A stretch of DNA of 64,000 bases from a candidate division WWE3 bacterium RIFCSPHIGHO2_01_FULL_40_23 (GCA_001772615.1 MEUZ01000003.1:350433-414432); one strand, 5' to 3'; positions 6,298 to 62,555 are shown, counted from the first letter of the stretch. Made by a program: numbers and translations. Notes: a model not told the origin generated them from the sequence alone.

Positions 6298-6564
6298 ATG
6301 AACACCACTTACATATGTTTGTCATCAACTGTAATTGGGATCATCTCGTTTGTGATCTTCAGCTATGGATTCGCAAAACACATGCAGGAAAAAATAGCTG
6401 GCGACCCCGATCTAAGCGATAGCGAAAGAGAGGAATCACTAACTTTCCTAAGAAAGTGGAAATTTGCGGCCCCCATTGGTCTTCTACTCTTTATGGGTGT
6501 GTTTGCATACGGAACATTGTTTGAACCCCCAGAGGCACCGCACCAGCATAAGAAAGGAGTTTAG
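6298..6564 (+). CDS. Small two-TM membrane protein, hypothetical (higher GC)
   Basis: The ATG at 6298 is preceded by aaaggagacggac. Two hydrophobic helices. Locally elevated GC. Confidence 0.5.
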   Translation: MNTTYICLSSTVIGIISFVIFSYGFAKHMQEKIAGDPDLSDSEREESLTFLRKWKFAAPIGLLLFMGVFAYGTLFEPPEAPHQHKKGV

Positions 6565-6565
6565 C

Positions 6566-6853
6566 ATGGCTGCCTGGTGGAACGAACTTTCTGCCATGAC
6601 AAGGGGGGCCATCATTACGGGGAGCATTATCTCCTACATTCTGATGGCCGTTCTGTATTTTCTCCTCTGGCTTGGTGGGGTGCTCGCCGAAGCGGAGAGG
6701 ACAGGGGGCGATACACATGAACCGATGCTCACCTACACTGAAGCTTTCCTGGCCGTAGTTTGCTTTATTCTTGCTCCGGTGGCGGTGTGGCCTCTCTTGC
6801 TCTACTCCCTCTACGTGATTTGGAAAGACGCAAGAAAAATAACCAAAGCTTGA
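6566..6853 (+). CDS. Small multi-TM membrane protein, hypothetical (higher GC)
   Basis: The ATG at 6566 is preceded by agaaaggagtttagc. The start overlaps the stop of the upstream ORF (translational coupling). Followed by the terminator at 6859-6890. Confidence 0.5.
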   Translation: MAAWWNELSAMTRGAIITGSIISYILMAVLYFLLWLGGVLAEAERTGGDTHEPMLTYTEAFLAVVCFILAPVAVWPLLLYSLYVIWKDARKITKA

Positions 6854-6858
6854 CCTCA

Positions 6859-6890
6859 AACCCGCCAGTCTGACACCCGGCGGGTTTTTC
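6859..6890 (+). terminator. Intrinsic terminator
   Basis: Stem cccgcc / ggcggg with a loop, then TTTTT. Confidence 0.6.
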
Positions 6891-6967
6891 AAATACAAAT
6901 GAAGGCATGCTTACTTTCGTACTGGAAGAAGAGGTTTAACTTCCACAGGTCTGTTGCTAAAATAATC

Positions 6968-8122
6968 CTTATGGAAAGCTATACTGCCATAGTTGTAGGA
7001 GGGGGTCCATCAGGTCTTGAATGCGCGCGGGAACTTAGCAAGCTCGGGCACAAAGTTCTGGTTTTAGAAAGATCAAAAATACCTGGAGAGCCAAACTTCT
7101 CTACGGGGGGAACACCTTTAGAAACGATTAATGAATACAACATTCCACTAAGCGTAACAAAAGATTATTTCAATAAAATTTCCCTAATAACTAATATTGA
7201 GAAGGCTGTTTTTACAAATGATTTTCCCGCAGGGTATGTTCTTGATTTCAGAGAGTTTAAAAAGCATCTTGCCGATGAAATTAGAAAAGGTCATGGATGG
7301 ACTGTTTATGGGTCTGACATCACAAATGTAAAGTTTGAAAGAGGCAAGATCAAAAGCCTTTCATTCGTGGTGGACGGACATCAAAAAGAGGTGTCCGCAA
7401 AGTACTTTATTGACGCAACGGCTAAGGAAGGAGCTTTAGTTTCAAAACTTGGATTAAGAAATCATAAAAACCATAAAACTACAACCGGCATTGAATACAT
7501 TGTTAAAGTTAAACTAGACGATTTTTACAAAAACAACCTCTGTATCTTTCTGGGGGGAAAGTACCTTCCCGACGGTTACGCCTGGGTTTTCCCTTTCGGG
7601 ACTGATACTTATAAAATTGGCGTGATTGTGTATGACGGGAAGGAAAGCGACTTTCAAAAACCTGAAGGGGGATACCTTGACTCTTTTTTACAATCAATTT
7701 CGAAGAATGGATTTGAGATACTTGAAAAACATGGAGGAACGCTTATTTTAACAAACGGTTTTAAGAGAAACGTTTGGGGAAACATAATATCTGTCGGCGA
7801 TAACGCGGGTATGTGCAATCCGTTATTCGCCGAAGGGATCAGGCACGCGCTTTTCAGCGGGAGATTAGCCGCAAGAATCATAGATAAAACGGAAAGGGGA
7901 AATTTAGAAATCAACCACCTGCTTAATTACGATGCACAACTAAATAAATACAAAGGAAGCTCATGGGGTATAGGCAGGTTCTTTGCAGACCTCCTATATC
8001 ACACTAAAAACGACAAGCTAAAGGACCTCCTGACAAAAAGGGTTTCCAAGCTTTCATGTAATGACGTGATAGACACCGGCTTTGAATACAATTTCTCCTC
8101 ACTCCTTAAACTCCTCAAATAA
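6968..8122 (+). CDS. FAD-dependent oxidoreductase, geranylgeranyl reductase family
   Basis: MESYTAIVVGGGPSGLECARELSKLGHKVLVLER is a Rossmann dinucleotide-binding N-terminus. About 385 aa. The alternative upstream ATG at 6899 is less likely. Confidence 0.7.
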   Translation, partial: LMESYTAIVVGGGPSGLECARELSKLGHKVLVLERSKIPGEPNFSTGGTPLETINEYNIPLSVTKDYFNKISLITNIEKAVFTNDFPAGYVLDFREFKKHLADEIRKGHGWTVYGSDITNVKFERGKIKSLSFVVDGHQKEVSAKYFIDATAKEGALVSKLGLRNHKNHKTTTGIEYIVKVKLDDFYKNNLCIFLGGKYLPDGYAWVFPFGTDTYKIGVIVYDGKESDFQKPEGGYLDSFLQSISKNGFEILEKHGGTLILTNGFKRNVWGNIISVGDNAGMCNPLFAEGIRHALFSGRLAARIIDKTERGNLEINHLLNYDAQLNKYKGSSWGIGRFFADLLYHTKNDKLKDLLTKRVSKLSCNDVIDTGFEYNFSSLLKLLK

Positions 8123-8160
8123 AAACCGCCCCTTGAGAAACCAAAGAGCGGTCATAGACC

Positions 8161-9171
8161 TTACACAATCATGCTAGCAACACTTTCGAGTGTGCCATCC
8201 GGAAGCGTAAGAGCCTGAATAAACTTTCCTGCAAGCGGTAGGCGTGAAGCTGCAATCTGATGAAAAGGATCAATCAGGCTGTTGACCACACAACCACAAT
8301 GGGAGCAGTCCGCTTCAGGGCCAAAGATACACTGCCCCTTGGGCTTCCCGTGAAAGTCGTAGGATATAACCCTGTTGGCGATTGCACACATTGCAGGCGA
8401 ATACGTAGCAGTATGATCCGGATGCAAAGTGCCAATTTGCGCTTCACTCATATTGATCCTCGCACCCATCTGCCGAAGCTTGAGGAGAAGCTCCACAAAG
8501 TCTGCTCTTTGCGCATCGGTCGGAGCCCAATCGGGAAGGCTTTCCCCAATGGGAGGTGTGGCGGTACTAAATACCATCCCATCAATCCCAGGGAAACCAT
8601 CCAGCTGCCAAATCAACCTTTCCATCTCTCCCGCGTTGGCGCTCATAAGCACCGTGTGGCTGAAGACTGGGAAAACATGGCCTAAAGCACTAGCTTTCTC
8701 ACGCCCTAAAAGTATTTGGCGTCTTGCCCTATCAGCCAAACCTGGAACGCCCCTCAAACGGTTATGCATCTCATCAGGCCCATCAATACTCACAACGTAG
8801 GTCACGGGAGATTGCCTTCCATTCTTTACGAAAGTTCCCATCTCGTAGAAGAAGGTTGTAATAATCCATGTGATCGGCGTGATCCCGACAACATGATGAA
8901 GCTCTTTCCTTCGCGCTCCAGGTTCACCTCCTACTATGGTCAGGTGAACCGCCCCTGCTTTAACTGCATCCGAGATAATCTTTACCCAACCCTCAATGGG
9001 GAGCCCGTGAGGGCCCGATTTAATCACCGGCACGTAGCAATCAGGGCATTCCATAGGGCAAACCTGGGTTATCTCAACCGATAAGCCCATGTACCCATTA
9101 GCCCCAAGTCTTGAAACCGGAGTAGCCAGCCTTGCCAAAGTCATAAAGTTATGCCAGCTTGACATCTTCAC
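8161..9171 (-). CDS. Radical SAM protein with a C-terminal auxiliary Cys cluster (twitch/SPASM-like)
   Basis: CPMECPDCY has CxxxCxxC spacing. The C-terminal cysteines lie in MCAIANRV, GQCIFGP and ADCSHCGC. Markedly higher GC than neighbouring genes. Confidence 0.65.
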   Translation of the reverse strand: MKMSSWHNFMTLARLATPVSRLGANGYMGLSVEITQVCPMECPDCYVPVIKSGPHGLPIEGWVKIISDAVKAGAVHLTIVGGEPGARRKELHHVVGITPITWIITTFFYEMGTFVKNGRQSPVTYVVSIDGPDEMHNRLRGVPGLADRARRQILLGREKASALGHVFPVFSHTVLMSANAGEMERLIWQLDGFPGIDGMVFSTATPPIGESLPDWAPTDAQRADFVELLLKLRQMGARINMSEAQIGTLHPDHTATYSPAMCAIANRVISYDFHGKPKGQCIFGPEADCSHCGCVVNSLIDPFHQIAASRLPLAGKFIQALTLPDGTLESVASMIV

Positions 9172-9306
9172 TCTCCTTTCGCATTTTGGTTTTGGCTAAT
9201 GTTACTATAAATTATCACAATTACAAACTTTGTATAATCACTCGTGAGTTTAATTTAAGGATAATAACAAACCTGATATAATAAGGCTTAGAAAGGAGTG
9301 ACACCC

Positions 9307-9567
9307 GTGGAGATAAACGCACTAACAATTGGTGCAGCTTATGTTGTTATAAACTACATTGTTGTGGGGATAGTCGTCGGTAGCTTACTTTACGAACTCA
9401 TGAAAGAAGTTCGCAAGAAGAAAGCATATAGTGGGGTGGACTGGAGAACACATGCGCCCAGCCGGTGGGAAATGCCAGCTCTTATCACGGCTTTTGCACT
9501 TTCCCCAATTTCATTACCTGCTTCTTTCCTCCTGCTCCTGTTCCTTCTGGAATATGCACCGGGGTAG
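9307..9567 (+). CDS. Small membrane protein, hypothetical (higher GC)
   Basis: GTG start with aaaggag 7 nt upstream. Hydrophobic. Followed by a terminator. Confidence 0.45.
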   Translation: MEINALTIGAAYVVINYIVVGIVVGSLLYELMKEVRKKKAYSGVDWRTHAPSRWEMPALITAFALSPISLPASFLLLLFLLEYAPG

Positions 9568-9585
9568 CAGGAACGCGAGAGTTAA

Positions 9586-9628
9586 AACAGCCCCTAAAAT
9601 CAGGTGAACCAAGAGGGCTGTTTTTTAT
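9586..9628 (+). terminator. Intrinsic terminator
   Basis: Stem cagccc ... gggctg, then TTTTTT. Confidence 0.5.
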
Positions 9629-9648
9629 TCTTCTGTTAAAATGCCTGT

Positions 9649-10938
9649 ATGCTTTCTCTGATAATCGTTAAGGCCGTGCTTATCTGTATCCGCACATTTA
9701 CAAAATATTCCGGTACTGCTCTTCCCGGTCTCATTGTAGAAACCTACTTTCCCAAAACCTTTGAAAAACTTTTAAGAAATATAAAGCACATGGTTCTTGT
9801 TACAGGAACAAACGGCAAAACCACAACTTCAAGAATGCTTTGCCATCTGCTTAAAAAAAATAATGTGGGTTTTATTTCAAATCCGAGTGGTTCCAATTTA
9901 TTAAGAGGGATTGCATCAACTCTAGCCGAAAATTCGGACATTGCAGGAAATATAAAAACTAATCTGGCTGTTTTTGAGATAGAGGAGGCAAGTCTTCCGA
10001 AACTTACAGGTATAATAAGGCCCGACATAATTATCGTAACAAACATTTTCCGGGACCAGCTTGATGCATACGGTGAAATTGACAAAACGTACCAATACCT
10101 AAAAGAGGGCATAGAAAAATCCGATAACCCAAGATTAATCCTAAACGCGGATGATGAAAGGGTGAGAAGCTTAAGAAATTTTTCAAAAAATGAGGTGGAT
10201 CTTATTTCTTTTGAAAAAGCTTACCTAAGGCATATAAAATTTGAGAATAGAGAAAGTAAAAATACTGCCACCAATATTAAAGCATGTGAGATTAGAAATG
10301 TTGAGGTTCATAAGGACTTAGGTATTTCCTTTGATCTTTCTTACGGTGAAGGAAAAATTAAAAAGATTGCAACTTTATCCCCCGGTTTTCATAACGCTTT
10401 TAACGCATCGGCCGCTATTATCAGCTTTGACTCTCTCTCAAAACTTGGGGTAGTTAAAGCTAATAAACCTGATACCAGCTTAAGCGATTTCAAACCCCCA
10501 TTTGGAAGAGGCGAAATTATTAAGGTAGGAAATACTAAATTTCAGATCCTTCTTTTTAAAAATCCTGCCGGAGCAAACCTTAATCTTCATCTTCTTGAAA
10601 GTGTACAGAAGCGTGAAGCGGTATTTTTAATTCTTAATGACAACACGGCAGACGGGAAAGATGTTTCATGGATCTGGGATTGCGATTTCACTCTTTTGAA
10701 AAATCTTAACTTCAAAAACGTTTACATCTCGGGAACAAGAGCCTTTGATCTGGCCTTAAGGCTAAAGTATGAAGGAATTGAAGTTTCCCAAGTAGATGGG
10801 AACGCACATAAAATACTTGATTTAATTCTTAAAGAAAACTTTGATATGGTGTATGTACTTCCAACCTACACAGCAATGCTTTCAGTCAGGGGTTTACTAT
10901 CACAACATACTGGAGTTAAAGAAATTTGGAAACACTAA
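9649..10938 (+). CDS. murT: Lipid II isoglutaminyl synthase subunit MurT (Mur-ligase family with DUF1727-like C-terminus)
   Basis: Contains MVLVTGTNGKTTTSRML, a Mur ligase P-loop. 429 aa. Immediately followed by the GatD partner. Confidence 0.8.
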   Translation: MLSLIIVKAVLICIRTFTKYSGTALPGLIVETYFPKTFEKLLRNIKHMVLVTGTNGKTTTSRMLCHLLKKNNVGFISNPSGSNLLRGIASTLAENSDIAGNIKTNLAVFEIEEASLPKLTGIIRPDIIIVTNIFRDQLDAYGEIDKTYQYLKEGIEKSDNPRLILNADDERVRSLRNFSKNEVDLISFEKAYLRHIKFENRESKNTATNIKACEIRNVEVHKDLGISFDLSYGEGKIKKIATLSPGFHNAFNASAAIISFDSLSKLGVVKANKPDTSLSDFKPPFGRGEIIKVGNTKFQILLFKNPAGANLNLHLLESVQKREAVFLILNDNTADGKDVSWIWDCDFTLLKNLNFKNVYISGTRAFDLALRLKYEGIEVSQVDGNAHKILDLILKENFDMVYVLPTYTAMLSVRGLLSQHTGVKEIWKH

Positions 10939-10951
10939 GGAGAATAAGGGT

Positions 10952-11716
10952 ATGAACCTAAAACTAAACCACTTATATTCCCAAAACCTTAACATTTACG
11001 GAGATCTTGGAAATATTATTGCCTTTAAATACAAGGCAGAAAAAGCGGGGATAAACCTTTATGTGTCTCACACAGAAATCGGTGAAGAAATAAGCGAAGC
11101 CGATATTTACTTTATAGGAGGCGGGCAGGATCAAGACCAAATCCTGGTCTATGAGGATCTTCTTAGACACAAAGGCTTCATCCTAAATGAAGTTGAGAAA
11201 GGCAAAGTTTTTCTTCTTATTTGTGGAGGCTACCAGCTTTTTGGCAAATACTTTGTGGATGGAGAGGGGAATGCGCTAAAGGGGCTTTCCATTCTTGATC
11301 TTGAAACTAACTCACCGGATAGCAAAGTTTCATCCCGCTGCATTGGAAATATTGTTGCTCAATTAAACAGTGGGTTTATTAAACACTGGGACGTTGATGC
11401 ATCTTTTTCAAAATACATAGTTGGTTTTGAAAATCACGGAGGGCAAACTAAACTTCTAACTGACCAGGTTAAACCGATTGGAGAGGTAATCAAGGGCTTT
11501 GGCAATAACTCAACCGACAAAGTTGAAGGCTGTTTTTACAAAAACATCATCGGATCATATATGCATGGGTCCTTCCTTCCCAAAAACCCCCACATCACAA
11601 ACGCCATTTTAAAAAAAGCCCTCTTGCAAAAGTACAATGATGTAACTTTTGAAAACCTCTATGAAGGGGAGGAAAAGAAAGCTCATCAACTGATCCTCAT
11701 GAGATCTGGATTTTAA
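10952..11716 (+). CDS. gatD: Lipid II isoglutaminyl synthase glutaminase subunit GatD (CobQ-like GATase)
   Basis: NIYGDLGNIIAF...IYFIGGGQDQDQ...LICGGYQLFGKYF matches the GatD signature. RBS aaggag lies upstream of the ATG at 10952. Confidence 0.8.
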   Translation: MNLKLNHLYSQNLNIYGDLGNIIAFKYKAEKAGINLYVSHTEIGEEISEADIYFIGGGQDQDQILVYEDLLRHKGFILNEVEKGKVFLLICGGYQLFGKYFVDGEGNALKGLSILDLETNSPDSKVSSRCIGNIVAQLNSGFIKHWDVDASFSKYIVGFENHGGQTKLLTDQVKPIGEVIKGFGNNSTDKVEGCFYKNIIGSYMHGSFLPKNPHITNAILKKALLQKYNDVTFENLYEGEEKKAHQLILMRSGF

Positions 11717-12803: not shown

Positions 12804-13739
12804 CTAATTTAATACGTAACTATTCTTATTTCTTTTAACCATCACATCAACAATTTCCGAAAACCTGGATTTATATAAAGGACTTTTCTTTAACTCTGAA
12901 AGATCCTCGCTTGCCGATTCAGTTAGCAGAAGGATAAGAAGCTTTCCCTGCGAGGGAACGGAGTTTTTTGCGGTTGCGTACTTTGAATTTAATGAAAAAC
13001 TTAAAATGGTCTTGCCCTTTGCTCTTTTTACATCCTCAAAAACTTCCGAGTCATTTGAGACAACCAAATAATCATCAACAAGCCGCGCTGAAAAACTGGA
13101 CTCTTTTGTAGCTTCCGCAAGAACACTTAGCTTTTCATTATTCTTGGCCTTTGATAAAAATCCCCATACTCTTTTTCGGCCGGAGCCATTCTTATCCTTA
13201 ATTCTTGAGAATATTACATACTGTCTATCAAGAAGAGTTTCGACATCAGACAGCTTAAGGTCGGTTTTTGGAACCGATGTGGAAAGCGGTAAATTCGTAA
13301 AAGAAGATAAAAATTTAGAAATATCAAATCCCTCCACATACAAATCAACATCGGGCGGAATCAGAGAAGATAGGGACTGATTGCCAAATGAGGCAAGGGG
13401 AAGATCAGCGTCCGTTTTTAATATCCTCTCATCAACCAAGACCTCTTTAACGGGAGTGCTTCTTTTTTTTGTGATTGCATTAAGCCTTGATAAAAACATA
13501 GCCGAAGCAGTTAAAAGGATAATTACCAAAATGAAAACGATGTAAGAAGTTTTAAGTTTTAAAATATCTTTTGAGAATTCTTCCTTAACAATAAAAAGCG
13601 GGGGTGTTAAATGACCTTTAAGGTAAGTCCTGACATCGGCTGAGGTTAGCTCCTGCGGAAGCTTCGCACCGCATCTGAAACAAAAGTAATTACCGACAAT
13701 TCCAAGTCCTTCTCTGCAAACAGGGCAGGTTCTTTCCAT
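12804..13739 (-). CDS. Zinc-ribbon membrane protein, hypothetical
   Basis: CPVCREG...CFRCG is an N-terminal zinc ribbon, followed by one TM helix and a roughly 230-aa extracytoplasmic region. It sits 7 nt upstream of the Lon-like gene. Confidence 0.55.
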   Translation of the reverse strand: MERTCPVCREGLGIVGNYFCFRCGAKLPQELTSADVRTYLKGHLTPPLFIVKEEFSKDILKLKTSYIVFILVIILLTASAMFLSRLNAITKKRSTPVKEVLVDERILKTDADLPLASFGNQSLSSLIPPDVDLYVEGFDISKFLSSFTNLPLSTSVPKTDLKLSDVETLLDRQYVIFSRIKDKNGSGRKRVWGFLSKAKNNEKLSVLAEATKESSFSARLVDDYLVVSNDSEVFEDVKRAKGKTILSFSLNSKYATAKNSVPSQGKLLILLLTESASEDLSELKKSPLYKSRFSEIVDVMVKRNKNSYVLN

Positions 13740-17259: not shown

Positions 17260-17520
17260 ATGGCAAAAAAAACATGGCCAAGGACGCCTGAAGTAAACGA
17301 AATGTTTGTCGTGGCACTGGATCCGGATGAGGCTTATTCGTTTTTCGTTGAGGGCTCATCTGAAGCTGTTGAGCTGGAAAGGGGCACCCATCTTAAGTTC
17401 GTAGGTATACAGAAAACCCCGGGAAGAGGCACCTATTATGTTTTTGCTAACGGGGGCAGGCGATTGGTGATAGAAGATTTCTTAGCGGAAACACACGTTC
17501 ATCCTGTAAGGGAGCAATAA
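17260..17520 (+). CDS. Hypothetical small protein (higher GC)
   Basis: MAKKTWPRTPE..., about 86 aa, with no recognisable motifs. Followed by a hairpin terminator. Confidence 0.4.
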   Translation: MAKKTWPRTPEVNEMFVVALDPDEAYSFFVEGSSEAVELERGTHLKFVGIQKTPGRGTYYVFANGGRRLVIEDFLAETHVHPVREQ

Positions 17521-17522
17521 AT

Positions 17523-17558
17523 CAGCCGGGAGAGAAATAAAAGACCTACCCGGCTTTT
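17523..17558. terminator. Intrinsic terminator between convergent genes
   Basis: Stem agccggg / cccggct, then TTTT. Confidence 0.5.
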
Positions 17559-17561
17559 AAC

Positions 17562-19034
17562 TTACAAAACCTCAATTATATCTTTCACTTTAATATCTTT
17601 AAAAATAGGATTTAGAAGAACACCGCACTCAACGTCTTTTCCAACAACATTAACCTCTTCTTTTCCACGCCTTAAGTGCTTTATTTTGGCCGTAAAAATA
17701 GGCTCCTCCGCACTCTCCCTGAAGATTGAAATTTTGGCACCCTGCCTTAAAGCCCCGCCTAAAACTTTGCACCCTGCTACAATATCACCCGATTCAAGAG
17801 GGAATACTTTAAGCACTTCAGCCCTTCCTTTTACTTTAACCTCTTCTTTAAACAAAACCTCTTTAAGAAGGCTCTCAACTTCATCCAGAAGCTTATAAAT
17901 AATGGTGTATGCTCTGACTGTCACTTTCATGCTGTCAGCAAGCTCTAAGACCTTTGAGGGAACTTTAGTATTAAAACCAAAAATTAGACCTTTAGATGAA
18001 TGGGCAAGAAGAACATCGGATTCCGATATATCTCCCGTGGCTTTATGTAAAAATTTAAGCCTGGCTTCGGGAGTCTCAAGCTTCTTTAATGAACCTTCAA
18101 GAGCCTCCAAAGATCCGTGTGCGTCCGCTTTCAAGATTAAATTAATGACCTTTGTAGAGTCTAAAACCTTTTCCTCCTCGGGCACGGTTTCTTTTTTTAC
18201 ATCCAAAAGATCTTTATTCTTAACGCTCACAAAGACTTCACCCGCGGGTGGGACTATAGGGAACCCCAAAACCTCAATGGGATCCGATGGAGTAGCGTCT
18301 TTCACCTGTGTTCCGGTAAAATCAAAAAGAGATCTAACCTTGCCGGAAGTTTTATAGGTGTATATCTCATCGCCCACTTTTAAAGTTCCGTTTTTAATAA
18401 TCGCGGTAAAAAGCGGCCCTTTTTTCGCATCAAGCTTAGACTCAATTATTACCCCTTCCAGATCACCCTTTGGGTCGGCTTTAAGCTCAAGTATTTCGGA
18501 TAAAGCGAGGATTGAGTCTAAAAGCTTATCAACACCCAATCCTGTTTTAGCGGAAACAGGAACACAAATTACGTCACCTCCGAATCCTTCAACCAAAACC
18601 TCATTTTCCGCAAGCTGCTGCTTCACTTTATCGGGATTTGCCTGCGGGAGATCCATTTTATTTATAGCAACAATAATTTGGGAGTTTGCCGCTTTCGCGT
18701 GTGAAATAGCCTCTTTAGTTTGAGGCATAACACCGTCATCACCCGAAACTACGAGAATAACAATATCCGAAACCTTCCCCCCTCTTCCCCTCATTTTGGC
18801 AAAAGCCTCATGCCCGGGAGTGTCAATAAAAGTTATTTTCCTATCCTTATATATAACCTGATAAGCGCCTATTTTCTGCGTAATGCCACCGTGCTCGCCC
18901 TCGGCTACTTTTGACTTACGAATATAATCTAAAAGGGAAGTTTTTCCATGGTCAACATGACCCATCACAGCTACAACTGGAGGCCTTATAAAAGGGTATT
19001 CTTTTTTTGAGGTTAAAGCACTTTCTTTTTTCAT
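17562..19034 (-). CDS. infB: Translation initiation factor IF-2 (short form)
   Basis: VVAVMGHVDHGKTSLLD G-domain. 490 aa, lacking the long N-terminal region. Confidence 0.9.
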   Translation of the reverse strand: MKKESALTSKKEYPFIRPPVVAVMGHVDHGKTSLLDYIRKSKVAEGEHGGITQKIGAYQVIYKDRKITFIDTPGHEAFAKMRGRGGKVSDIVILVVSGDDGVMPQTKEAISHAKAANSQIIVAINKMDLPQANPDKVKQQLAENEVLVEGFGGDVICVPVSAKTGLGVDKLLDSILALSEILELKADPKGDLEGVIIESKLDAKKGPLFTAIIKNGTLKVGDEIYTYKTSGKVRSLFDFTGTQVKDATPSDPIEVLGFPIVPPAGEVFVSVKNKDLLDVKKETVPEEEKVLDSTKVINLILKADAHGSLEALEGSLKKLETPEARLKFLHKATGDISESDVLLAHSSKGLIFGFNTKVPSKVLELADSMKVTVRAYTIIYKLLDEVESLLKEVLFKEEVKVKGRAEVLKVFPLESGDIVAGCKVLGGALRQGAKISIFRESAEEPIFTAKIKHLRRGKEEVNVVGKDVECGVLLNPIFKDIKVKDIIEVL

Positions 19035-19045
19035 TTGCTTTCTTT

Positions 19046-20155
19046 CTATTCATTGCCGTTTTTTTCTTGATCTTTTACTTCTTCTGACTCGGGCGTTTCT
19101 TGCGCGCTATCTTCACTGACCTTCTCTTTTTTATCTTCTTCCACCTCTGTTTTTTCCTCCACAGGACTCTCAACTGCGGGTTCCTCCTCACTTAAGGAAT
19201 CTACTTCAGGCTTGGCTGTATCGTTTAATCCCTTTATATCTATTCTCCACCCCGTAAGTTTTGCCGCAAGCCTTACATTCTGGCCTTCTTTTCCTATGGC
19301 GAGGCTTAACTGATCATCAGGAACTATAACCTTCGCTTCTTTATTGTCCCTATCTGCGATCACATCCGCAACCTTGGCGGGGGAAAGGCTTGCCGCAATA
19401 AACCTGTCAATTTCAGGGTTATATGGAATTATATCTATTTTCTCACCGTTTAACTCTGCAATAATAGCCTGAACCCTGACACCCTTCTGCCCGACACAGC
19501 TTCCAACCGGATCAACATTGGATTCTTTGGATGAAACTGCGATTTTTGTCCTGCTTCCAGGCTCCCTTGAGATAGCTTCAACCCTCACAACTCCCTGCGC
19601 GACTTCAGGGACTTCCATTGCAAAAAGATTACTAACAAAAAGGGGATCGGCTCTTGAGACGATTATTTCAAGGCCTCTTCCACCTTCTCTTATATCTTTT
19701 ACCAAAACTTTAAGCTTCTGGTTTAAAGAGTATTTTTCGGTTTGAATCTGCTCCGACTGCGGAAGGATACCTTGCGCCTTTCCAAGATCAACAATCACAA
19801 CTCCCTTTTCCATTCTGAAAATATGCGCATTAACAATTGTCCCGATTTTTTTCTTGAAGTCGGCAAACACAGTTTCCTTTTCACTTTCTCTTATTTTTTG
19901 CAAAATTACCTGTTTTGCGGTTTGAGCTGCAATCCTTCCAAAACCGGAAGGGGTTACATCCTCACCACCTTTATAAATTTTTGCTTCGCCCGTGTCGGAA
20001 TCAACGGTTGCCGTAATATCCTCGGTAGTTGAACCGTAATCTTTTTTATAAGCGGATACAAGCGCCGCTCTTATTGTTTCCAGAACCGACTCAACAGGAA
20101 TGCCCCTTTCGGTCGCAACCTGATTTAAAGCTGCATTAAATTCCGATATTGCCAT
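19046..20155 (-). CDS. nusA: Transcription termination/antitermination factor NusA
   Basis: N-terminal domain, S1 and two KH domains, plus an acidic C-terminal tail. Lies upstream of infB. Confidence 0.9.
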   Translation of the reverse strand: MAISEFNAALNQVATERGIPVESVLETIRAALVSAYKKDYGSTTEDITATVDSDTGEAKIYKGGEDVTPSGFGRIAAQTAKQVILQKIRESEKETVFADFKKKIGTIVNAHIFRMEKGVVIVDLGKAQGILPQSEQIQTEKYSLNQKLKVLVKDIREGGRGLEIIVSRADPLFVSNLFAMEVPEVAQGVVRVEAISREPGSRTKIAVSSKESNVDPVGSCVGQKGVRVQAIIAELNGEKIDIIPYNPEIDRFIAASLSPAKVADVIADRDNKEAKVIVPDDQLSLAIGKEGQNVRLAAKLTGWRIDIKGLNDTAKPEVDSLSEEEPAVESPVEEKTEVEEDKKEKVSEDSAQETPESEEVKDQEKNGNE

Positions 20156-22640: not shown

Positions 22641-22678
22641 AAATAAAAAAGGGCGTCCGACTTAAAGCCAAACGCCCC
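22641..22678 (-). terminator. Intrinsic terminator downstream of the small membrane ORF
   Basis: Reads ggggcgt..acgccc followed by TTTTTTATTTTT on the minus strand. Confidence 0.55.
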
Positions 22679-22703
22679 AAAGTTTCGGGTGCACACTTTC
22701 CTC

Positions 22704-28640: not shown

Positions 28641-28649
28641 CTCTCTATC

Positions 28650-48271: not shown

Positions 48272-48439
48272 ATGAAAAGGTTGAGGAGAAAAAATCAAAC
48301 CAAGGCCGGTATGAATGTAGAAGTTCGACCGATTGGGGCATCCAGGAGAAAATCCAAAAGCGTATTTAGAAGCGTTCTTGCCAACTTAAAGGGTCCAGTC
48401 AACCTTGTGCTGAGGCTCGTGCAGAATATTTTTTATTGA
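48272..48439 (+). CDS. Small basic ORF (55 aa), hypothetical
   Basis: RBS aaggagacggcaag, then ATG. MKRLRRKNQTKAGMNVEVRPIGASRRKSKSVF... It falls below the ORF-track cutoff. Confidence 0.25.
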   Translation: MKRLRRKNQTKAGMNVEVRPIGASRRKSKSVFRSVLANLKGPVNLVLRLVQNIFY

Positions 48440-50039: not shown

Positions 50040-50085
50040 AATTCAGGATCTACAGTGAGATACCTGCTTTCGCAGGAATGGCAGA
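50040..50085. repeat. Palindromic repeat family copy R4 (reverse orientation)
   Basis: cctgctttcgcaggaatggcag is the reverse complement of the cattcctgcgaaagcagg core. Confidence 0.6.
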
Positions 50086-50090
50086 AAATT

Positions 50091-50852
50091 TCAGTCTTCC
50101 AAAATCTCAACAGAGTTAACGGTGACGTTTTCTAATGGATCGGATTTTTCCCTAAAAGCATTTTCCTTAACAGGTGTATCGGCAATTTTATCAACCACAT
50201 CCATCCCCTCTGCTACCTCACCGAAAATTACATAATTTTTCGGTAGTGGGTAATCGGCGTGCATTATAAAAAATTGGCTTCCGTTAGTATTCGGACCGGA
50301 GTTAGCCATAGCCAAAATACCTCTTGTGTAATCCCGTGTAATAGGTTCATCAGAAAATTTATAACCCGGGTCTCCTGTTCCATTTCCAAGCGGATCACCG
50401 CCCTGAATCATAAAACCTTTCATAATTCTGTGAAATCTTGTATTGCTATAAAAACCTTCTTTAGAAAGGAATACAAAATTATTTACCGTAACGGGAGTTT
50501 CTTTTTCAAAAAGGTCAACGGTTACATCCCCTTTTGATGTTTTTAGAACCGCTTTATAATCCTTGCCCTTTTTAAGAATCATCTCTGGAGGATTTTTATA
50601 TCTTCTAAAAGAAGCCACATTGCTTTGGGAAGATTCCTCTTCCTCATCTTTTTTCAGCCGGTCATCAGAAACTACAGAAGCAGCTTCTTCAGGTCTTTTT
50701 GACAGGGCGCTGAAAATAACAATTACAACAAGAACTCCTAAAACTATAGCAAGTACCTGGGTTTTTTGCATGATGGGGATTTTATCACACGGACGATACT
50801 CCTGTATATAAAACCCTCCCACAACTATGTATGGGAGGGTAGAGTAAATCAT
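50091..50852 (-). CDS. Cyclophilin-type peptidyl-prolyl isomerase with an N-terminal membrane anchor
   Basis: FHRIMKGFMIQGGDP...GILAMANSGPNTNGSQFFI. The start is ambiguous between 50852 and 50771. Confidence 0.85.
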   Translation of the reverse strand: MIYSTLPYIVVGGFYIQEYRPCDKIPIMQKTQVLAIVLGVLVVIVIFSALSKRPEEAASVVSDDRLKKDEEEESSQSNVASFRRYKNPPEMILKKGKDYKAVLKTSKGDVTVDLFEKETPVTVNNFVFLSKEGFYSNTRFHRIMKGFMIQGGDPLGNGTGDPGYKFSDEPITRDYTRGILAMANSGPNTNGSQFFIMHADYPLPKNYVIFGEVAEGMDVVDKIADTPVKENAFREKSDPLENVTVNSVEILED

Positions 50853-51169
50853 GCAAGAGGAGGAAATTTCCCCAGAAGGTAGGTTTCAATTTCAGACAGA
50901 AATTTCTCCTCATCTAGATTCCTCTCCCGGCAGGCCTTTTGAAGTGAAGCTATACCTTCTTGGGTAAGAGAGTATCCGTCTATCGAATAAACCGCCACGC
51001 CTCCCTGCACTAAAGGAATATATCCCTTAGGCTGGTCTGAACGGTCAGGGTTCATAAGCAGATAGGCGCTGAAATTCACAACTTTCGGGAATTCACCTCT
51101 TGTAGAAAGGTTTCCGCCGCTGATAAAGAGCTCGTAGTACCCTATCTTCGCAATTCTTGTGTATCTCAT
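50849..51169 (-). CDS. Hypothetical protein
   Basis: AGGAGG lies 8 nt upstream of the ATG at 51169. 106 aa. Confidence 0.4.
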   Translation of the reverse strand: MRYTRIAKIGYYELFISGGNLSTRGEFPKVVNFSAYLLMNPDRSDQPKGYIPLVQGGVAVYSIDGYSLTQEGIASLQKACRERNLDEEKFLSEIETYLLGKFPPLA

Positions 51170-52982: not shown

Positions 52983-53102
52983 TGTCATCCTGAACTGACT
53001 TTATGTCATGCCGGACCTGATCCGGCATCTATAATCCTAGATTCCCGCTTTCGCGGGAATGACACTTGATTCGTGTTGGAGCTTAGACCCTGCTTTCGCA
53101 GG
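52983..53102. repeat. Palindromic repeat family copy R5 (compound, TIR-bounded)
   Basis: tgtcatcc...catgccggacctgatccggcat...ctagattcccgctttcgcgggaatgaca, then cctgctttcgcagg. Confidence 0.65.
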
Positions 53103-53143
53103 AACAGACCTAACAAACCACCAACAAAAAAGGCCAGCTGTAA

Positions 53144-53440
53144 TTACTCAACTGGCCCAAGGTTTCTACCGCAACCGGGACAAATCCAATTCCCATGCTT
53201 ATTTACAGGAAGGGAAAAGCAATCCAGTCCAGAGCACATCGGCCGCAACTTCCTCCTAACTTCAGCCGGGGCAAGCCTTATCCCTGCTGCAGGTGTTTCC
53301 ACAGCGAAAACCCTTTTCGCAGCTTTAGTTGGCACACGCATTCTGCTTTGGTGATGTTCACCCCGATCACAGTCAGTACAAAATTCGCCATTATCTGCGA
53401 CCTTGTTTCTGCAACCGCACGAACAAGCGCAAGTTGCCAT
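53144..53440 (-). CDS. Cys-rich small protein (zinc-ribbon-like), hypothetical, higher GC
   Basis: MATCACSCGCRNKV...CTDCDRGEHH...CPGCGRN. A strong RBS gaaggaaggagaaagatc precedes the ATG. Confidence 0.5.
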   Translation of the reverse strand: MATCACSCGCRNKVADNGEFCTDCDRGEHHQSRMRVPTKAAKRVFAVETPAAGIRLAPAEVRRKLRPMCSGLDCFSLPVNKHGNWICPGCGRNLGPVE

Positions 53441-55684: not shown

Positions 55685-55717
55685 ACCGCGGGACAAGAGC
55701 ACCCCGCGGTTTTTTCT
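55685..55717 (+). terminator. Intrinsic terminator
   Basis: accgcggg..ccccgcggt, then TTTTTT. Confidence 0.65.
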
Positions 55718-58076: not shown

Positions 58077-58427
58077 GTGGAGATGAAGACTTTGTTTCAG
58101 GCTATTGTAGTAGCCGCCATGCCACTGTTTTTCCTGATCATCGGAATTTTAACCGGCGTACTGACGAAACTTGAGCTAGAGATTATTCTTTACGCGGCTC
58201 TGGTAATTTTGCTGGTTGTGCTTTCCGGATACGGGTTCTTCACCCTGCTGGGAGCCTCGTGGGATAAAAGCAAAAACGGGGTAGTCTGCCTTTTTGCCAG
58301 CCTGTTCATTTCGGTGGCAGCAGTACACGTCCCAAACGGTACTGTGCTTCCGTTCATCACATACATGCTTTTCCTAACGGGTGTGGGGCTTGGGCACTTC
58401 GTCCCATTTCCGAAAGCAAAGAAGTAA
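58077..58427 (+). CDS. Small polytopic membrane protein, hypothetical (higher GC)
   Basis: 116 aa with 4 TM helices. A terminator follows. Confidence 0.45.
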   Translation: MEMKTLFQAIVVAAMPLFFLIIGILTGVLTKLELEIILYAALVILLVVLSGYGFFTLLGASWDKSKNGVVCLFASLFISVAAVHVPNGTVLPFITYMLFLTGVGLGHFVPFPKAKK

Positions 58428-58430
58428 ACT

Positions 58431-58462
58431 TACCCCCGTAACAAATTTGCGGGGGCTTTTTA
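58431..58462 (+). terminator. Intrinsic terminator
   Basis: cccccg..cggggg, then CTTTTT. Confidence 0.6.
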
Positions 58463-61400
58463 TACCTCAAGTTCAAGCTGACTGTCCTCACCACCGCCTT
58501 TTGGAATACCGTTTGGCCAGCAATGAGCCCTGTAATCACAATTCACGCAGGTTTTGTAATTTGTAGTTCTTTCAAACTTTAGCTCTCTGATTTTTTTCAT
58601 CACATCTTTGATAGTAAGCTTAAGCTCCTCCAGCTCCCCCAAGGATATATTAAAAGAGTGCCTAGAAAACTTTCCATTTTTATCAGGCTCCACAAAATCG
58701 AGCTCTGCGTCAGTCACCGTAAAGTTAAATGTCCGGTCTAAATCGGCAAGAAGTTTATAAAAAACAAGCTGTCTTTTATATCCGCCGTTTGAGTACTTAG
58801 TCTTGCCCTCAACGTCATTCCTTGACTTTGCCTTCCCCGTTTTATAATCAATAACCTTCACATACTTTCGCGAGACGTCAACATAATCAATCTTGTCAAC
58901 TTTCCCATTAAGAGGAATGTTATCAAGATAAACTTTGGAGTTCCCATACCCAAAAAACTTTTCGGTAAAAAGAGGCTTTTGAAACTCTTTGTTATAAGAA
59001 CCAAAATAAGCTTTCAGGATTAAACTTCCTTTTGCCCTCGTTTCCAAAAAATCTCTTTCCGTTAAAATCTCCTCGCTAATTGCTTTTTCAAACTCTGATA
59101 AAAGATACGGCAGGTCGGGAAGCTTTCCCGTATTTTTAAACTCCCTGAAAAATATCTCCAAAGCCTTGTGAACGGCGGTTCCAAGCGCAAGATACTTATC
59201 CTTGGCCCTCGGGGTCCTAAGTAGATTATTAAGTTTAAATTTATAAGGGCATTCAAGATATGTATTTAACGCCGTAACCGAAAGGCTGAAATTTTTAAGA
59301 ACGCTTTTTAAGAAATCTTTTTCTTCTATTGAAACATTTTCAGAAGTAACCGGCTTTAAAATGTCTTTTAAAATTTCTTTGACGGAAGATTCATACTTTG
59401 AAACTTCGATCTCCTCCGTTTTGTCTTTTGAAATCTCGGAAATAAACATTGATGGAACTGCTTCTCTTAAAGACCCTTCGGTAAAATATGAATCCGCGTA
59501 TGTAACAAAAAGCCCTTTTTTTGCTCTCGTCATTGCAACGTAAAAAAGTCTTCTTTCATCCTCATTCTTTTCTTTTGACGCATCCAACGTCCCGGCTTTG
59601 TCTTTAACGCCAAGAGAAGCCCCGACAAGGCCTTCCGGAAGTTTTATTAAATCCCTGACTTTATTATTACCCCACTTTCCGTCAAAGCATTTAACTAAAA
59701 AGACATACTCAAACTCAAGGCCCTTTGACCTGTGAGCCGTCGTTAACAAAACAGAGTTATTTCTGATATTTAAAGCCTCCTCATTTATGGGAATTCCGCT
59801 TTCCTTAAGAATTAAAACATCCTCCATAAATTTCTTAAGGTTAAGAGAATGATCGGCTGTATTTAGCTTTTTAATTTCGGCAAACAAAGAATTTAATCTG
59901 TTTAATTTTTCTATGGAATCTCGGGAAGAAATCACCCAGTTTAAAAATCCCGATTCCTCTAAAACTCTTTCAAAAAAAGCGGTGAAAGTAAGATTAGAGT
60001 CTAGACTTTGCCACTCATAAAGCTTATCCAGAAACTTTTCAAAATTTAGGGCATTTAAAACCCCTGAAGATTTCTTAAAATCGGGATGATTTATTGCTTC
60101 AACAAAATTTATTTTCTTCTCACTAGCAAAGCGGGAAAGCTTAAGGGTGTCAACATAATCAAAGTCCAAAAACTCGTAATTAAAAATGGTGAAAAGATCA
60201 AGGTCCTCCTCTTTGCTTCTGACTTTTAAAATCACGTCAAGAAGCTTTAGGAGTTTATTAATGTCATAATCCTCTAAAACATTTTCCCCGCCTATAAGAT
60301 TAAACGGAATTCCCATCCTCCCAAACATGTCCGAGAAGTCTTTTGAATCCGCATTGTTCCTATAAATTACCGCAATTTCAGAAGGCAAGACCCCATCTTC
60401 CACAAGTTTTTTGATTTGTGTAGAAACAAAAAAGCTCTCCGTAATTCCAGAAGAAAAATGCCCGAGCTCTATCCTCTTATCTTCATATGTAACCGCACTT
60501 TCCTGCCTTTTTTCAACGTTTAGAAAATCCGTTAATTTAAGCTCATTATTTTTTATTAAATCCTCCGACGCGCCAATAATAACTTTCTGGCTTCTGTAAT
60601 TTTCCTTAAGGGTAATTATTTTTGCCTTCGGATAATTTTTTGTGAAAAAGAGTATGTTATCTAGTGAAGCTCCCTGAAATCTGTATATGGACTGTGAGTC
60701 ATCGCCCACCACAAACACATTTGCTTCGTCACCCCAGTAGCTTGCAAGAAGATGGGCAACTTTGTTCTGCGGAGAGTTTGTGTCCTGATATTCATCAACA
60801 AGAAAATACAAATATCTTTCCTGATAATCCCTAAGAAGATTTGCGTCGTTATCAAATCTTTCGGTAACAAGATTAATCATGTCTTCAAAGTCATACCGGT
60901 TTTTCTCTTTCAATTTTTGTAAATATCTTGAGTAAACATCCAAAACCTCCGAGAGTTTTTCAAAGTTTTCGCTTTTTTCTATAAACTTCTCAAAATCTTT
61001 TTCCGAGATACCCTCCCTTTTCAAATCCTGTATTGTTCTAATCAAAGATCTTACATAGTAGTACCTGCCTCCAAACGGTCTAATATTTTTATAACCTCCC
61101 TCGTCAAGAATTTCCCTGAATATCTGAACCCTTTCAAGATCAGATAAAGGCTCAAGATCTTCCGAAAGGACAAACCTGTCGGGGTTACTTCTTAAAATGT
61201 CTGAACAGAAGGAATGAAAGGTATAAATGTTCACGTAATAAGCTTCCGAACCTATTATTGATAAAAGCCTTTCCCTCATGGCTTTAACACCGGAGTCGGT
61301 AAAGGTGAGAGCCAAAATTGCAGATGAGGGTGTATCGGTCTTTTTGAGAATGTTTGCAATTCTCATAGTGAGAACCTGCGTCTTTCCCGTTCCGGGTCCC

Positions 61401-61519
61401 GCGATAACTAAAACGGGGCCTTCTATAGTGTCAACCGCTTCTTTCTGCTTTGGGTTTAGCTCTTTGTATAAAGATTCAAATGTTTCTGTATGGGCCTTCT
61501 TGGACATACTCATCAGCAT
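58460..61519 (-). CDS. UvrD/PcrA-like SF1 helicase fused to a C-terminal PD-(D/E)XK (RecB/Cas4-like, Cys-cluster) nuclease; AddA/AdnB-like
   Basis: The N-terminal VLVIAGPGTGKTQVL and the UvrD motifs. The C-terminal VIDYKTGK...FVEPDKNGK...CVNCDYRAHC. About 1015 aa. The start may be the internal MSKKAH. Confidence 0.75.
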   Translation of the reverse strand: MLMSMSKKAHTETFESLYKELNPKQKEAVDTIEGPVLVIAGPGTGKTQVLTMRIANILKKTDTPSSAILALTFTDSGVKAMRERLLSIIGSEAYYVNIYTFHSFCSDILRSNPDRFVLSEDLEPLSDLERVQIFREILDEGGYKNIRPFGGRYYYVRSLIRTIQDLKREGISEKDFEKFIEKSENFEKLSEVLDVYSRYLQKLKEKNRYDFEDMINLVTERFDNDANLLRDYQERYLYFLVDEYQDTNSPQNKVAHLLASYWGDEANVFVVGDDSQSIYRFQGASLDNILFFTKNYPKAKIITLKENYRSQKVIIGASEDLIKNNELKLTDFLNVEKRQESAVTYEDKRIELGHFSSGITESFFVSTQIKKLVEDGVLPSEIAVIYRNNADSKDFSDMFGRMGIPFNLIGGENVLEDYDINKLLKLLDVILKVRSKEEDLDLFTIFNYEFLDFDYVDTLKLSRFASEKKINFVEAINHPDFKKSSGVLNALNFEKFLDKLYEWQSLDSNLTFTAFFERVLEESGFLNWVISSRDSIEKLNRLNSLFAEIKKLNTADHSLNLKKFMEDVLILKESGIPINEEALNIRNNSVLLTTAHRSKGLEFEYVFLVKCFDGKWGNNKVRDLIKLPEGLVGASLGVKDKAGTLDASKEKNEDERRLFYVAMTRAKKGLFVTYADSYFTEGSLREAVPSMFISEISKDKTEEIEVSKYESSVKEILKDILKPVTSENVSIEEKDFLKSVLKNFSLSVTALNTYLECPYKFKLNNLLRTPRAKDKYLALGTAVHKALEIFFREFKNTGKLPDLPYLLSEFEKAISEEILTERDFLETRAKGSLILKAYFGSYNKEFQKPLFTEKFFGYGNSKVYLDNIPLNGKVDKIDYVDVSRKYVKVIDYKTGKAKSRNDVEGKTKYSNGGYKRQLVFYKLLADLDRTFNFTVTDAELDFVEPDKNGKFSRHSFNISLGELEELKLTIKDVMKKIRELKFERTTNYKTCVNCDYRAHCWPNGIPKGGGEDSQLELEV

Positions 61520-61567
61520 GAATTATAACGGATTGACACACAGAAAAGCTTAAACTAAAGTTGTCCC

Positions 61568-62002
61568 ATGGATGAGGAAAGAAAGCTGGTTTTTGAACTT
61601 TTAAAAGCGGCGGGCATTCCCGATAACGAAATTGAAAGCTATTACTCCAAGATGATTACATTGTCTCTTACCTACCTTGTAGCCTTCACACTTTCGGCCC
61701 TTAACGAGGATGAAAAAGAAAAGCTGACAAAAGAGCTTAAAGATTCTTCAAAACAGGCGGATATAATTATTCAAAAACTAAAAGAAGCTTGTGAGTCTTC
61801 GCAGAACAAGCCTGACATAAGGGACATAGCCGCCCTTGCAAAAATAAAAGCCTCTTCAGAATTTTTCGGGTCGGTTTACGACAAAGCAGACGAGGGGCAT
61901 AAGACAAAACTTATTGAAGTTTACAGAGGTATAATTACCTCAAACCCCACACATAAAGAAAATATTGAGAATGTGATTAATGCGTTCGGGAAGGAGGACT
62001 AG
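61568..62002 (+). CDS. Hypothetical protein
   Basis: 144 aa, helical. Confidence 0.4.
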   Translation: MDEERKLVFELLKAAGIPDNEIESYYSKMITLSLTYLVAFTLSALNEDEKEKLTKELKDSSKQADIIIQKLKEACESSQNKPDIRDIAALAKIKASSEFFGSVYDKADEGHKTKLIEVYRGIITSNPTHKENIENVINAFGKED

Positions 62003-62003
62003 T

Positions 62004-62555
62004 ATGAGAGAAGGACCACCTTTGGAAATGCCCCATGAGGAAGTTTCTACCGCCGGTTCTGAAGCTGCAAAACCGGACGAGGGGTTTACGATTAGAATAC
62101 TAGGGATTGATGTCCCTGAACCTGTAGCTACAAAAGCCGCGGTTGTATTAGTTGCAACCGCAACAGCTTTTGCACAGGCTAAGGAAGCTCTTGGATCTAA
62201 TTTTGAGGTACCCACTACACCCGAGGAAGGAGCGAAAGAGGCAATGAAGCTATTAATCGGGGTAGGAGGCGGCGCAGTCCTACTCGGAGCCGGGCTTGCA
62301 GTGGGAATGCGAATTAAAAGGGCTTGGGAGGAGGGCGATACTCACCAACAGCCTTCGGAAGAACCACGGCCTAGAGGCCAAGGATATAAAGACTCCCGCG
62401 AGGAGGCACTAGATCGGGGTATTGGGCAGGCTCAAGCCTCGGCTCCATTTGTTTCCAGAATGAGGGGTGCTTCACCAGTCGAAAGGTTAGAAGCTCTAAG
62501 AGACTTAGAAAACCCTACCAGGGGATCAAGAAAATCTCTATCAGAACTAACATAA
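62004..62555 (+). CDS. Membrane-anchored hypothetical protein (higher GC)
   Basis: ATG 1 nt after the upstream stop. A TM helix LLIGVGGGAVLLGAGLAVGM. Low-complexity charged regions. Confidence 0.4.
   Translation: MREGPPLEMPHEEVSTAGSEAAKPDEGFTIRILGIDVPEPVATKAAVVLVATATAFAQAKEALGSNFEVPTTPEEGAKEAMKLLIGVGGGAVLLGAGLAVGMRIKRAWEEGDTHQQPSEEPRPRGQGYKDSREEALDRGIGQAQASAPFVSRMRGASPVERLEALRDLENPTRGSRKSLSELT

Follow-up and report, generated by a model that had tools for sequence, protein, structure and literature searches.

Small GC-rich genes with their own expression signals among the core genes of a WWE3 bacterium: candidate accessory cassettes

We analysed a stretch of 64,000 nt (hereafter, the window) from the genome of candidate division WWE3 bacterium RIFCSPHIGHO2_01_FULL_40_23, which belongs to the Candidate Phyla Radiation (CPR, or Patescibacteria). 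The window falls within contig MEVI01000003.1 of assembly GCA_001772695.1. The large open reading frames (ORFs) of the window are core genes, namely those of RNase J, UDG, MurT/GatD, PNPase, S15, IF2, NusA, DnaJ/DnaK/GrpE/HrcA, TrmD, LepA, MurJ, PGK, GAPDH, UvrD, KsgA, cyclophilin, FemAB and an AddA-like helicase. Dispersed among them are about 14 loci, mostly small GC-rich ORFs, which differ from the core genes in their expression signals and codon usage, and which, in the region that was compared, are absent or replaced in relatives. With a probability of roughly 55%, we regard these loci as accessory, non-core cassettes of an architecture like that of phage morons. They would then be autonomous units that were inserted between the genes of a conserved housekeeping backbone. 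Each would comprise a -10 box of the sigma-70 type, a strong Shine-Dalgarno (SD) sequence within a leader of ~17-35 nt, a small ORF and an intrinsic terminator that would insulate the neighbouring genes from the cassette. About half of the ORFs would encode membrane proteins that form a hairpin of two transmembrane (TM) segments, and the others small soluble proteins. Gain, loss and replacement between related genomes would be fast. The loci are as follows (aa, amino acids; GC3, G+C fraction at third codon positions).

6298-6885, plus strand: bicistronic cassette with ORFs 6298-6564 (88 aa, 2 TM, GC 0.438) and 6566-6853 (95 aa, 2 TM, GC 0.524), AAAGGAG before each, common terminator 6860-6885
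8124-9165, minus strand: radical-SAM gene of divergent sequence, start codon ATG at 9165 (334 aa), AAAGGAG as SD, terminator 8124-8153
9307-9623, plus strand: 2-TM ORF of 86 aa, divergent from the radical-SAM gene, GTG at 9307 after AAAGGAG (alternative GTG at 9298), terminator 9585-9623
17260-17555, plus strand: soluble ORF (86 aa) in antisense, with the stop codon of IF2 on one side and the conserved promoter of DHH on the other, AGGAG as SD, bidirectional terminator 17524-17555
22650-22922, minus strand: 2-TM ORF of 72 aa, AAAGGAG as SD, terminator 22650-22678
23104-23509, plus strand: soluble ORF of 123 aa in the DnaK/DnaJ slot, AGGAG as SD, terminator 23487-23509
23593-23949, plus strand: ORF of 100 aa, predicted to be tautomerase/MIF-like, AAAGGAG as SD, terminator 23925-23949
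28281-28677, plus strand: alpha/beta ORF of 119 aa, AAAGGAG as SD, terminator 28650-28677
33164-33539, minus strand: membrane ORF of 113 aa, AAAGGAG as SD, terminator 33164-33192
45878-46195, minus strand: 1-TM ORF of 105 aa, AAGGAG as SD, no terminator
48272-48439: borderline locus, similar and small
50814-51169, minus strand: borderline member, ORF of 106 aa starting after AGGAGG, terminator 50814-50839
53131-53440, minus strand: Cys-rich ORF of 98 aa (CxCxCxC...CxxC...CxxC), AAGGAG as SD, hairpin 53131-53158 across the stop codon
55453-55710, plus strand: ORF of 69 aa, GC3 0.61, AAAGGAG as SD, terminator 55685-55710
58083-58455, plus strand: membrane ORF of 114 aa with three TM-like segments, AAAGGAG as SD, terminator 58433-58455
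62004-62555, plus strand: ORF of 183 aa with one TM and acidic, disordered-looking ends, second gene after 61568-62002 (not retained in the class, see below)

The loci differ from the core genes in their promoters, starts and terminators, all of which are predictions from sequence. Ten of the loci listed in the original prediction, together with 22704-22922, combine a -10 box, an AAAGGAG leader of 17-35 nt, a codon-shifted small ORF and a strong hairpin with a T-tract. At nearly every listed ORF, AAAGGAG or AAGGAG lies 5-10 nt upstream of the start codon, which bears out the earlier statement that most of them have canonical AAGGAG sequences. An SD match of at least 5 nt was absent in 43 of the 67 window genes, and core genes hardly ever have an SD, either in the window or in the relatives described below. 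SD-positive genes were shorter than the others (median 116 vs 311 aa, p = 3e-5) and had a higher GC3 (0.443 vs 0.370, Mann-Whitney p = 3e-4). DnaK and 30308-30934 have a strong SD but normal codon usage, which indicates that the SD is functional in this organism. The DnaK SD is AAAGGAGG both in the window and in the related genome L089.

The -10 box was located mostly 24-41 nt upstream of the cassette starts, compared with mostly 0-19 nt upstream of those core starts for which one could be detected. Many core genes have a TAnAAT box within this short distance, for example those with starts at 9649, 51256, 20745 and 27412 and those at 12804-13739 and 58460-61519 on the minus strand. Boxes so near to the start codons suggest that many core genes have leaderless or near-leaderless mRNAs. 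In the literature on SD or leaderless usage in WWE3 or CPR bacteria, we found nothing directly relevant and no description of this core-gene pattern. The longest-ORF starts of the DUF2330 (28656), LepA (33223) and cyclophilin (50852) genes overlap the upstream cassette terminators. These genes probably start further downstream than annotated. In the case of LepA, an ATG that follows a TACAAT box directly beyond the terminator at 33164-33192 is probably the true one.

Strong terminators were defined as hairpins with a T-tract and a stem of at least 8 bp, including at least five G-C pairs. Twenty were found in the window. Twelve of them lie directly 3′ of a cassette ORF on the same strand, two are cassette sites read on the opposite strand and one extends across the 53144-53440 stop codon; the sites elsewhere number only about five. 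About 15 of the 20 belong to small genes, and core genes are almost without intrinsic terminators. The private hairpin and T-tract attributed to each locus at first were thus seen at 12-13 of about 15 cassettes, but not at 45878-46195. With an SD and a terminator, each cassette seems to be a complete expression unit, whereas the surrounding core genes lack both signals.

Base composition and codon usage also separate the two classes. The 11 loci listed originally have a GC content of 0.436-0.507, compared with 0.405 for the whole window, where the 95th percentile of 300-nt segments is 0.483. GC3 is 0.29-0.42 in core genes and 0.42-0.61 in small ORFs. We pooled 13 small ORFs (1,255 codons) and calculated the expectation from their own amino acids with the codon usage of the core genes. 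The observed GC3 was 0.496 against an expected 0.373, a difference of ~9 standard deviations by a binomial estimate. Both the higher GC than in the surroundings and the preference for G/C-ending codons, as noticed by eye in the original prediction, were therefore confirmed by computation. About 60% of the GC excess comes from codon choice and about 40% from amino-acid composition, the small ORFs being richer in A, L, V, P, R and W and poorer in K, D, E, N and S. The codon shift spans most amino acids. Leu is encoded by CTG or CTC at a frequency of 0.36 (0.14 in core genes), Arg by CGN at 0.32 (0.13), Phe by TTC at 0.43 (0.18) and Lys by AAG at 0.48 (0.32). Such a broad shift fits a different mutational background.

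We also compared a cassette model with a core model in a leave-one-out test of codon log-likelihood. The value was positive in 10 of the 14 cassettes, about zero in three and negative in one, 33198-33539, which is core-like in this test yet has a GC3 of 0.49. Among the non-cassette genes, it was negative in all but two, the borderline loci 48272-48439 and 50849-51169 (GC of the latter, 0.458), where it was about zero. Codon statistics along the window are thus not uniform, and the cassette and core classes separate by codon log-likelihood. The class proposed beforehand is real, but its list of loci has to be revised: 22704-22922 and the two borderline loci had been missed. In addition, 62004-62555 does not belong in the set. 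This ORF has native codon usage (GC3 0.357, core-like log-likelihood) and is the second gene of an operon, its start abutting the stop codon of 61568-62002. Its high GC is confined to codon positions 1 and 2 and results from a sequence rich in Ala, Gly, Glu, Pro and Arg.

The cassettes were then viewed against the contigs of six related WWE3 genomes (L089, L091, L093, L094, L100 and L104), which were reached via their PNPase homologues. Identity to the window is 57-73% for PNPase and 83-92% for S15. The conserved gene order is HrcA-GrpE-DnaK-[slot]-DnaJ-[slot]-NusA-IF2-[slot]-DHH-S15-PNPase-311aa-AAA-[junction]-UDG-RNaseJ-FtsK. Eight cassette ORFs lie in this region (6298, 6566, 8161, 9307, 17260, 22704, 23104 and 23593), and none of them had a tblastn match in the relatives at E < 0.01. 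The IF2/DHH slot is empty in five relatives, namely L089, L091 and L093, where it measures 64-97 bp, and L100 and L104. Its occupant in L094 is an unrelated TM ORF of 123 aa (GC 0.511, GC3 0.581, in a locus with a GC of 0.393) with AAAGGAG as SD and in the same orientation as 17260-17520. In both occupied slots, the cassette is flanked by the stop codon of IF2 and the conserved promoter of DHH, cTTGACCctatagt...TAAAAT. The DnaK/DnaJ slot contains three cassettes in the window. L089 has another set of genes there, 3 kb long, and L093 has other small ORFs, one of which (128 aa) has a GC of 0.504 and a GC3 of 0.589.

The AAA/UDG junction (6899-11716) is a 5.5-kb variable island in the window and measures 4 bp in the more distant L100. 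In the window it comprises GatD-MurT, 9307-9567, the radical-SAM gene, a gene of the geranylgeranyl-reductase family (GGR-like gene) and 6298-6853; in L089 and L091 there are an asparagine synthase and an F420-ligase-like gene. The UDG/GGR slot, occupied by 6298-6853 in the window, has in L091 two other 2-TM ORFs (18548-19063) with AAGGAGG and AAAGGAG, GC of 0.41 and 0.48 and GC3 of 0.44 and 0.55, beside a GGR-like gene with a GC3 of 0.30. GC-rich small ORFs, most of them with an SD, were found in L091, L093 and L094 (GC 0.41-0.51 in genomes of 0.37-0.39), and no cassette was found in 22 kb of L100. It appears that the slots are empty or filled differently from one relative to the next, and conservation of the cassette ORFs at the same positions was not observed.

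Other anchors were less useful. The matches listed for the UvrD/PcrA protein among genome contigs had ~50% identity and came from Firmicutes and Saccharibacteria, which are of no use for synteny. The nearest homologue of the DUF4153 neighbour had 28% identity and gave no anchor. A clade-specific S15 DNA pattern matched only two contigs in metagenomes, whose organisms are L091 and L092. From their labels, ANAN16 and RIFCSP, the samples would belong to the Rifle aquifer dataset. Contigs from eight samples were 99.99-100% identical where they overlap. With 99.9-100% identity among the Rifle contigs, the variation within the population was too low for dN/dS.

None of the small ORFs matched Pfam, NCBIfam, PHROG or PADLOC. 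TM-like segments were predicted in 8 of the 17 small ORFs, mostly as 2-TM hairpins, and the rest are small soluble proteins. This agrees with the initial description of them as membrane or orphan proteins without recognisable motifs. The suggestion that they form a lineage-specific set of one protein family was rejected: an all-against-all BLASTP of the small ORFs revealed no significant similarity and hence no paralogy. For 23593-23895, a single-sequence AlphaFold2 model reached a pLDDT (predicted local distance difference test score) of 85.9 and a pTM (predicted template modelling score) of 0.75. A Foldseek search of this model against the PDB gave 22 matches at E ≤ 1e-3, nearly all of them tautomerase, MIF or cis-CaaD, with TM-scores of 0.6-0.7. 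A tautomerase/MIF fold with a beta-alpha-beta repeat is predicted with confidence for this ORF, which lacks the catalytic Pro1 (it starts with M-I-S-V) and has no Pfam or NCBIfam match. An I(S/P)ERDI motif is common to this ORF and the adjacent 23104-23475. The structure model of 28281-28640 was poor (pLDDT 44) and not usable. As small 2-TM proteins are in excess, our guess is that the small proteins have accessory roles in the envelope or at the host interface.

The radical-SAM gene (8161-9165) is the large member of the class. Its GC is 0.51 and its GC3 0.505, compared with an expected 0.404, so that it falls in the codon class of the small ORFs. The CxxxCxxC cluster is present as CPMECPDC. 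Its score against Pfam Radical_SAM (25.3 bits) is below the cut-off of 29.5 bits, and the best NCBIfam matches, the maturases PqqE, StsB and SkfB, are far under their cut-offs. The family is rare, with 51 representatives at E ≤ 1e-10, one of them at 63% identity (GC 0.473, GC3 0.401) and the rest at no more than 38%. A homologue in the CPR-like genome L097, at ~30% tblastn identity, has native composition (GC 0.394, GC3 0.304). Next to this homologue (L097:8387-9438), we noticed three short fragments of glutamine synthetase, one with a GC of 0.537 in a genome of 0.40. They have the appearance of a foreign gene in decay.

An origin outside the core genome, with a fast turnover, is favoured by the breadth of the codon shift, the missing orthologues and slots that are occupied only patchily. 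We infer that the cassettes stem from a GC-richer, non-core gene pool. Their composition and patchy presence, on which the idea is based, suggest a horizontal origin or mobility. The original prediction had proposed horizontally acquired or mobile moron-like genes. This was supported in so far as the cassettes have their own signals, atypical GC and the status of extra DNA relative to related genomes, but neither a phage context nor a donor or second copy was revealed.

Several observations weigh against an accessory, non-core origin. For no cassette did we find a donor, a second copy or another genomic context. No phage or mobile-element gene lies nearby, and there were no PHROG or viral matches; viral contigs searched with the radical-SAM gene and 23593-23895 contained no relatives, and a fold search of BFVD gave no match. 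Flanking target duplications and insertion machinery were not identified. A deep homology search covered one small ORF, 58083-58427, and the radical-SAM gene. The former is an orphan, for which only its own cluster was matched among 5.8 billion proteins. The 90% clusters of ten other ORFs contained same-population variants only, all annotated as "hypothetical protein". The comparison with relatives covers one region, 3.8-26 kb, or about one-third of the window. The promoter regions of the cassettes are AT-rich, as in the rest of the genome. Finally, the UDG/GGR slot of L091, whose PNPase is 69% identical, contains 2-TM ORFs in which the SD is the same and the GC is likewise raised. If these ORFs were orthologous to those of the window, their high GC would have been kept without drift, which favours selection over recent transfer.

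These points lead to the strongest alternative, that the loci encode a class of small proteins native and specific to this lineage, which evolve fast, are inherited vertically and belong mostly to the envelope. We consider this explanation possible, though clearly the less probable one. The SD sequences and terminators would then reflect stand-alone, separately regulated units, and GC-rich codons would have been selected, for example for mRNA stability or translation kinetics. The native-looking promoters, an SD that works in this organism (as at DnaK in the window and in L089) and the missing donors are all in line with it, and ~14 cassettes in 64 kb would be a high density for recent transfers. 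So is the UDG/GGR slot of L091. The 2-TM ORFs 6566-6853 and 9307-9567, around the GGR-like gene, share a loop and a TM2 motif with the two L091 ORFs, the weak pattern being G..H.P ... (A/S)P(I/V). With a profile of the two L091 proteins, 9298-9567 came out top among 327 window ORFs, at a marginal E of 0.018, so that a 2-TM subfamily around the GGR-like gene would be at most marginal. However, none of the eight cassettes in the compared region has a detectable orthologue, the slots are empty in most relatives, and the more distant WWE3 genome L100 has no cassettes at all in its 22 kb. GC3 is not shifted in the highly expressed core genes DnaK, S15, GAPDH and PGK or in the large native membrane proteins MurJ and DUF4153, and the codon shift extends over most amino acids, as expected from a different mutational background.

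A broader and quite speculative idea, which we hold to be rather improbable, is that two gene-expression regimes coexist in the WWE3 clade. A largely leaderless core without SD sequences and terminators would be set against a large and quickly changing population of small SD-led, GC-rich, terminated accessory genes from an unsampled CPR-specific pool, which might consist of phages, plasmids or new gene birth. If this is true, the translation of the accessory genes could be controlled as a group through SD/anti-SD pairing, independently of the core.

It is very unlikely that the loci are what decay has left of larger GC-richer genes or islands that were acquired horizontally, with the ORFs as surviving fragments. 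The glutamine synthetase fragments among the GC-rich short ORFs beside the radical-SAM homologue of L097, the weak gene calls of 53144-53440 and 45878-46195 and the 5.5-kb variable island at the AAA/UDG junction would be compatible with decay. However, each ORF starts with ATG or GTG at a well-placed strong SD and ends just 5′ of a terminator, which is unexpected for fragments. No ORF matches a known family even weakly, and one of them (23593-23895) gives a complete, compact and confident fold.

The small ORFs appear to be real genes and not RNAs. Their lengths exceed those in dinucleotide shuffles in most slots, although, taken slot by slot, the length by itself is of no more than marginal significance (P 0.007-0.17 each). 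The weakest coding case is 53144-53440 (P = 0.11), for which gene calls were inconsistent between pipelines, as they were for 45878-46195. The latter was called by one annotation pipeline only, and its 3′ end overlaps the convergent D-Ala-D-Ala carboxypeptidase gene. Overlapping ORFs occur on both strands at several loci. One artefact, 30969-31265, is a spurious ORF (translation ...IPAFAGMT...) across a cluster of REP-like (repetitive extragenic palindromic) repeats at 30935-31300 and was rejected as a gene. Even so, that the GC-rich islands are structured non-coding RNAs or elements, with chance open frames in GC-rich DNA, is the least credible of the explanations, since no Rfam (gathering threshold), tRNA or tmRNA match was obtained at the small-gene loci, their RNA-fold z-scores (average -0.64, range -1.9 to +0.6) were like those of core-gene controls (-0.31), AAAGGAG is correctly spaced from the start of the longest ORF in about ten loci, which is not chance, and the ORFs show coherent hydrophobic 2-TM patterns and, in one case, a confident protein fold.

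Among known systems, the accessory cassettes resemble morons. Phage morons of the HK97/HK022 type have a promoter and a terminator of their own, a GC content unlike that of their neighbours and the status of extra DNA relative to related genomes (Cumby, Davidson & Maxwell 2012, PMC3594210). Similarly, the cassettes seem to be independent transcription units with a -10 box and an SD leader, followed in 12-13 of about 15 cases by a putative hairpin and T-tract. They differ in composition from their neighbours (GC 0.44-0.52 vs 0.405) and are extra DNA in a conserved gene order at the AAA/UDG junction and in the IF2/DHH and DnaK/DnaJ slots; the products of many are small membrane proteins or orphans. 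Unlike morons, they are located, at about one per 4-5 kb, among the housekeeping genes in the chromosome of a CPR bacterium, without phage genes or homologues nearby (by PHROG, by viral contigs for two ORFs and by BFVD), and no cassette was found in a second genome, a result of limited sensitivity that comes from the fetched relatives and a deep search with one small ORF.

The likeness to other systems is less complete. Lineage-specific ORFans and genomic islets are also short, patchy, atypical in composition, without homologues and annotated as hypothetical. ORFans are usually AT-richer than their genome, whereas the cassettes are GC-richer and have a uniform SD and terminator architecture that their own core genes lack. 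Integron cassettes likewise consist of small ORFs, mostly orphans, with an imperfect palindrome after each of them, but they are usually promoterless, form tandem arrays beside an integrase and have attC ends. The window cassettes are dispersed over 56 kb, single or paired, with their own -10 box and leader, and their 3′ palindromes look like ordinary terminators with a hairpin and T-tract; no integrase domain was present among the Pfam matches of the large window ORFs that were scanned. The proteins of type I toxin-antitoxin systems are also small, hydrophobic membrane proteins encoded between genes with strong translation signals. Type I toxins usually have fewer than 60 aa and one TM, in contrast to 69-123 aa and often two TM segments in the cassette ORFs, about half of which are soluble. 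An antisense RNA partner was not seen, though no search was aimed at one. The cassettes do not look like a new kind of system but like accessory add-ons resembling morons.

CPR/Patescibacteria genomes are small and rich in hypothetical proteins, and the ways in which they gain accessory functions are not well understood. In the window, the SD, the terminator and the codon class separate accessory from core genes almost perfectly, which offers a cheap, annotation-free way to find the flexible gene pool. Gene callers trained on core genes would treat the two classes differently, and pipelines already disagree on several ORFs. If the cassettes originate outside the core genome, a density of about one per 4-5 kb would imply that the gene flux in such reduced genomes is much more active than usually assumed. 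The practical importance is moderate.

Several loci had been said to lie beside repeats, and this was seen at two of them. The REP-like palindrome GTCATTCCYGCGAAAGCRGGAATC, with the core TCCYGC-N4-GCRGGA, has five copies of the intergenic type, compared with 0.23 expected. The sites are as follows.

31225-31252: REP-like repeat
50056-50092: REP-like repeat
53037-53103: REP-like repeat, adjoining 53144-53440
63497-63533: REP-like repeat

One REP-like copy lies inside the PMT_2 glycosyltransferase gene, and similar repeats occur in the DHH leader of L094. The second case is an inverted pair of 56-bp repeats with 98% identity, of which one copy (28158-28213) is just upstream of the 28281 cassette and the other (L001:19061-19116) is located ~0.9 kb past the end of the window.

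Two further observations concern other regions. Between PGK and GAPDH, a segment of 611 bp (42748-43358) lacks ORFs of more than 52 aa and gave no meaningful match to Rfam, an unusually long gap for this compact genome. Near NusA in L091 (1-6043; the same organism as L101), we found genes of UbiA, a CDP-alcohol phosphatidyltransferase, a CarS-like protein (CDP-archaeol synthase family), an epimerase and an acyltransferase. Together with the GGR-like gene elsewhere on the contig, this set brings to mind the synthesis of isoprenoid or archaeal-type lipids by a CPR bacterium.

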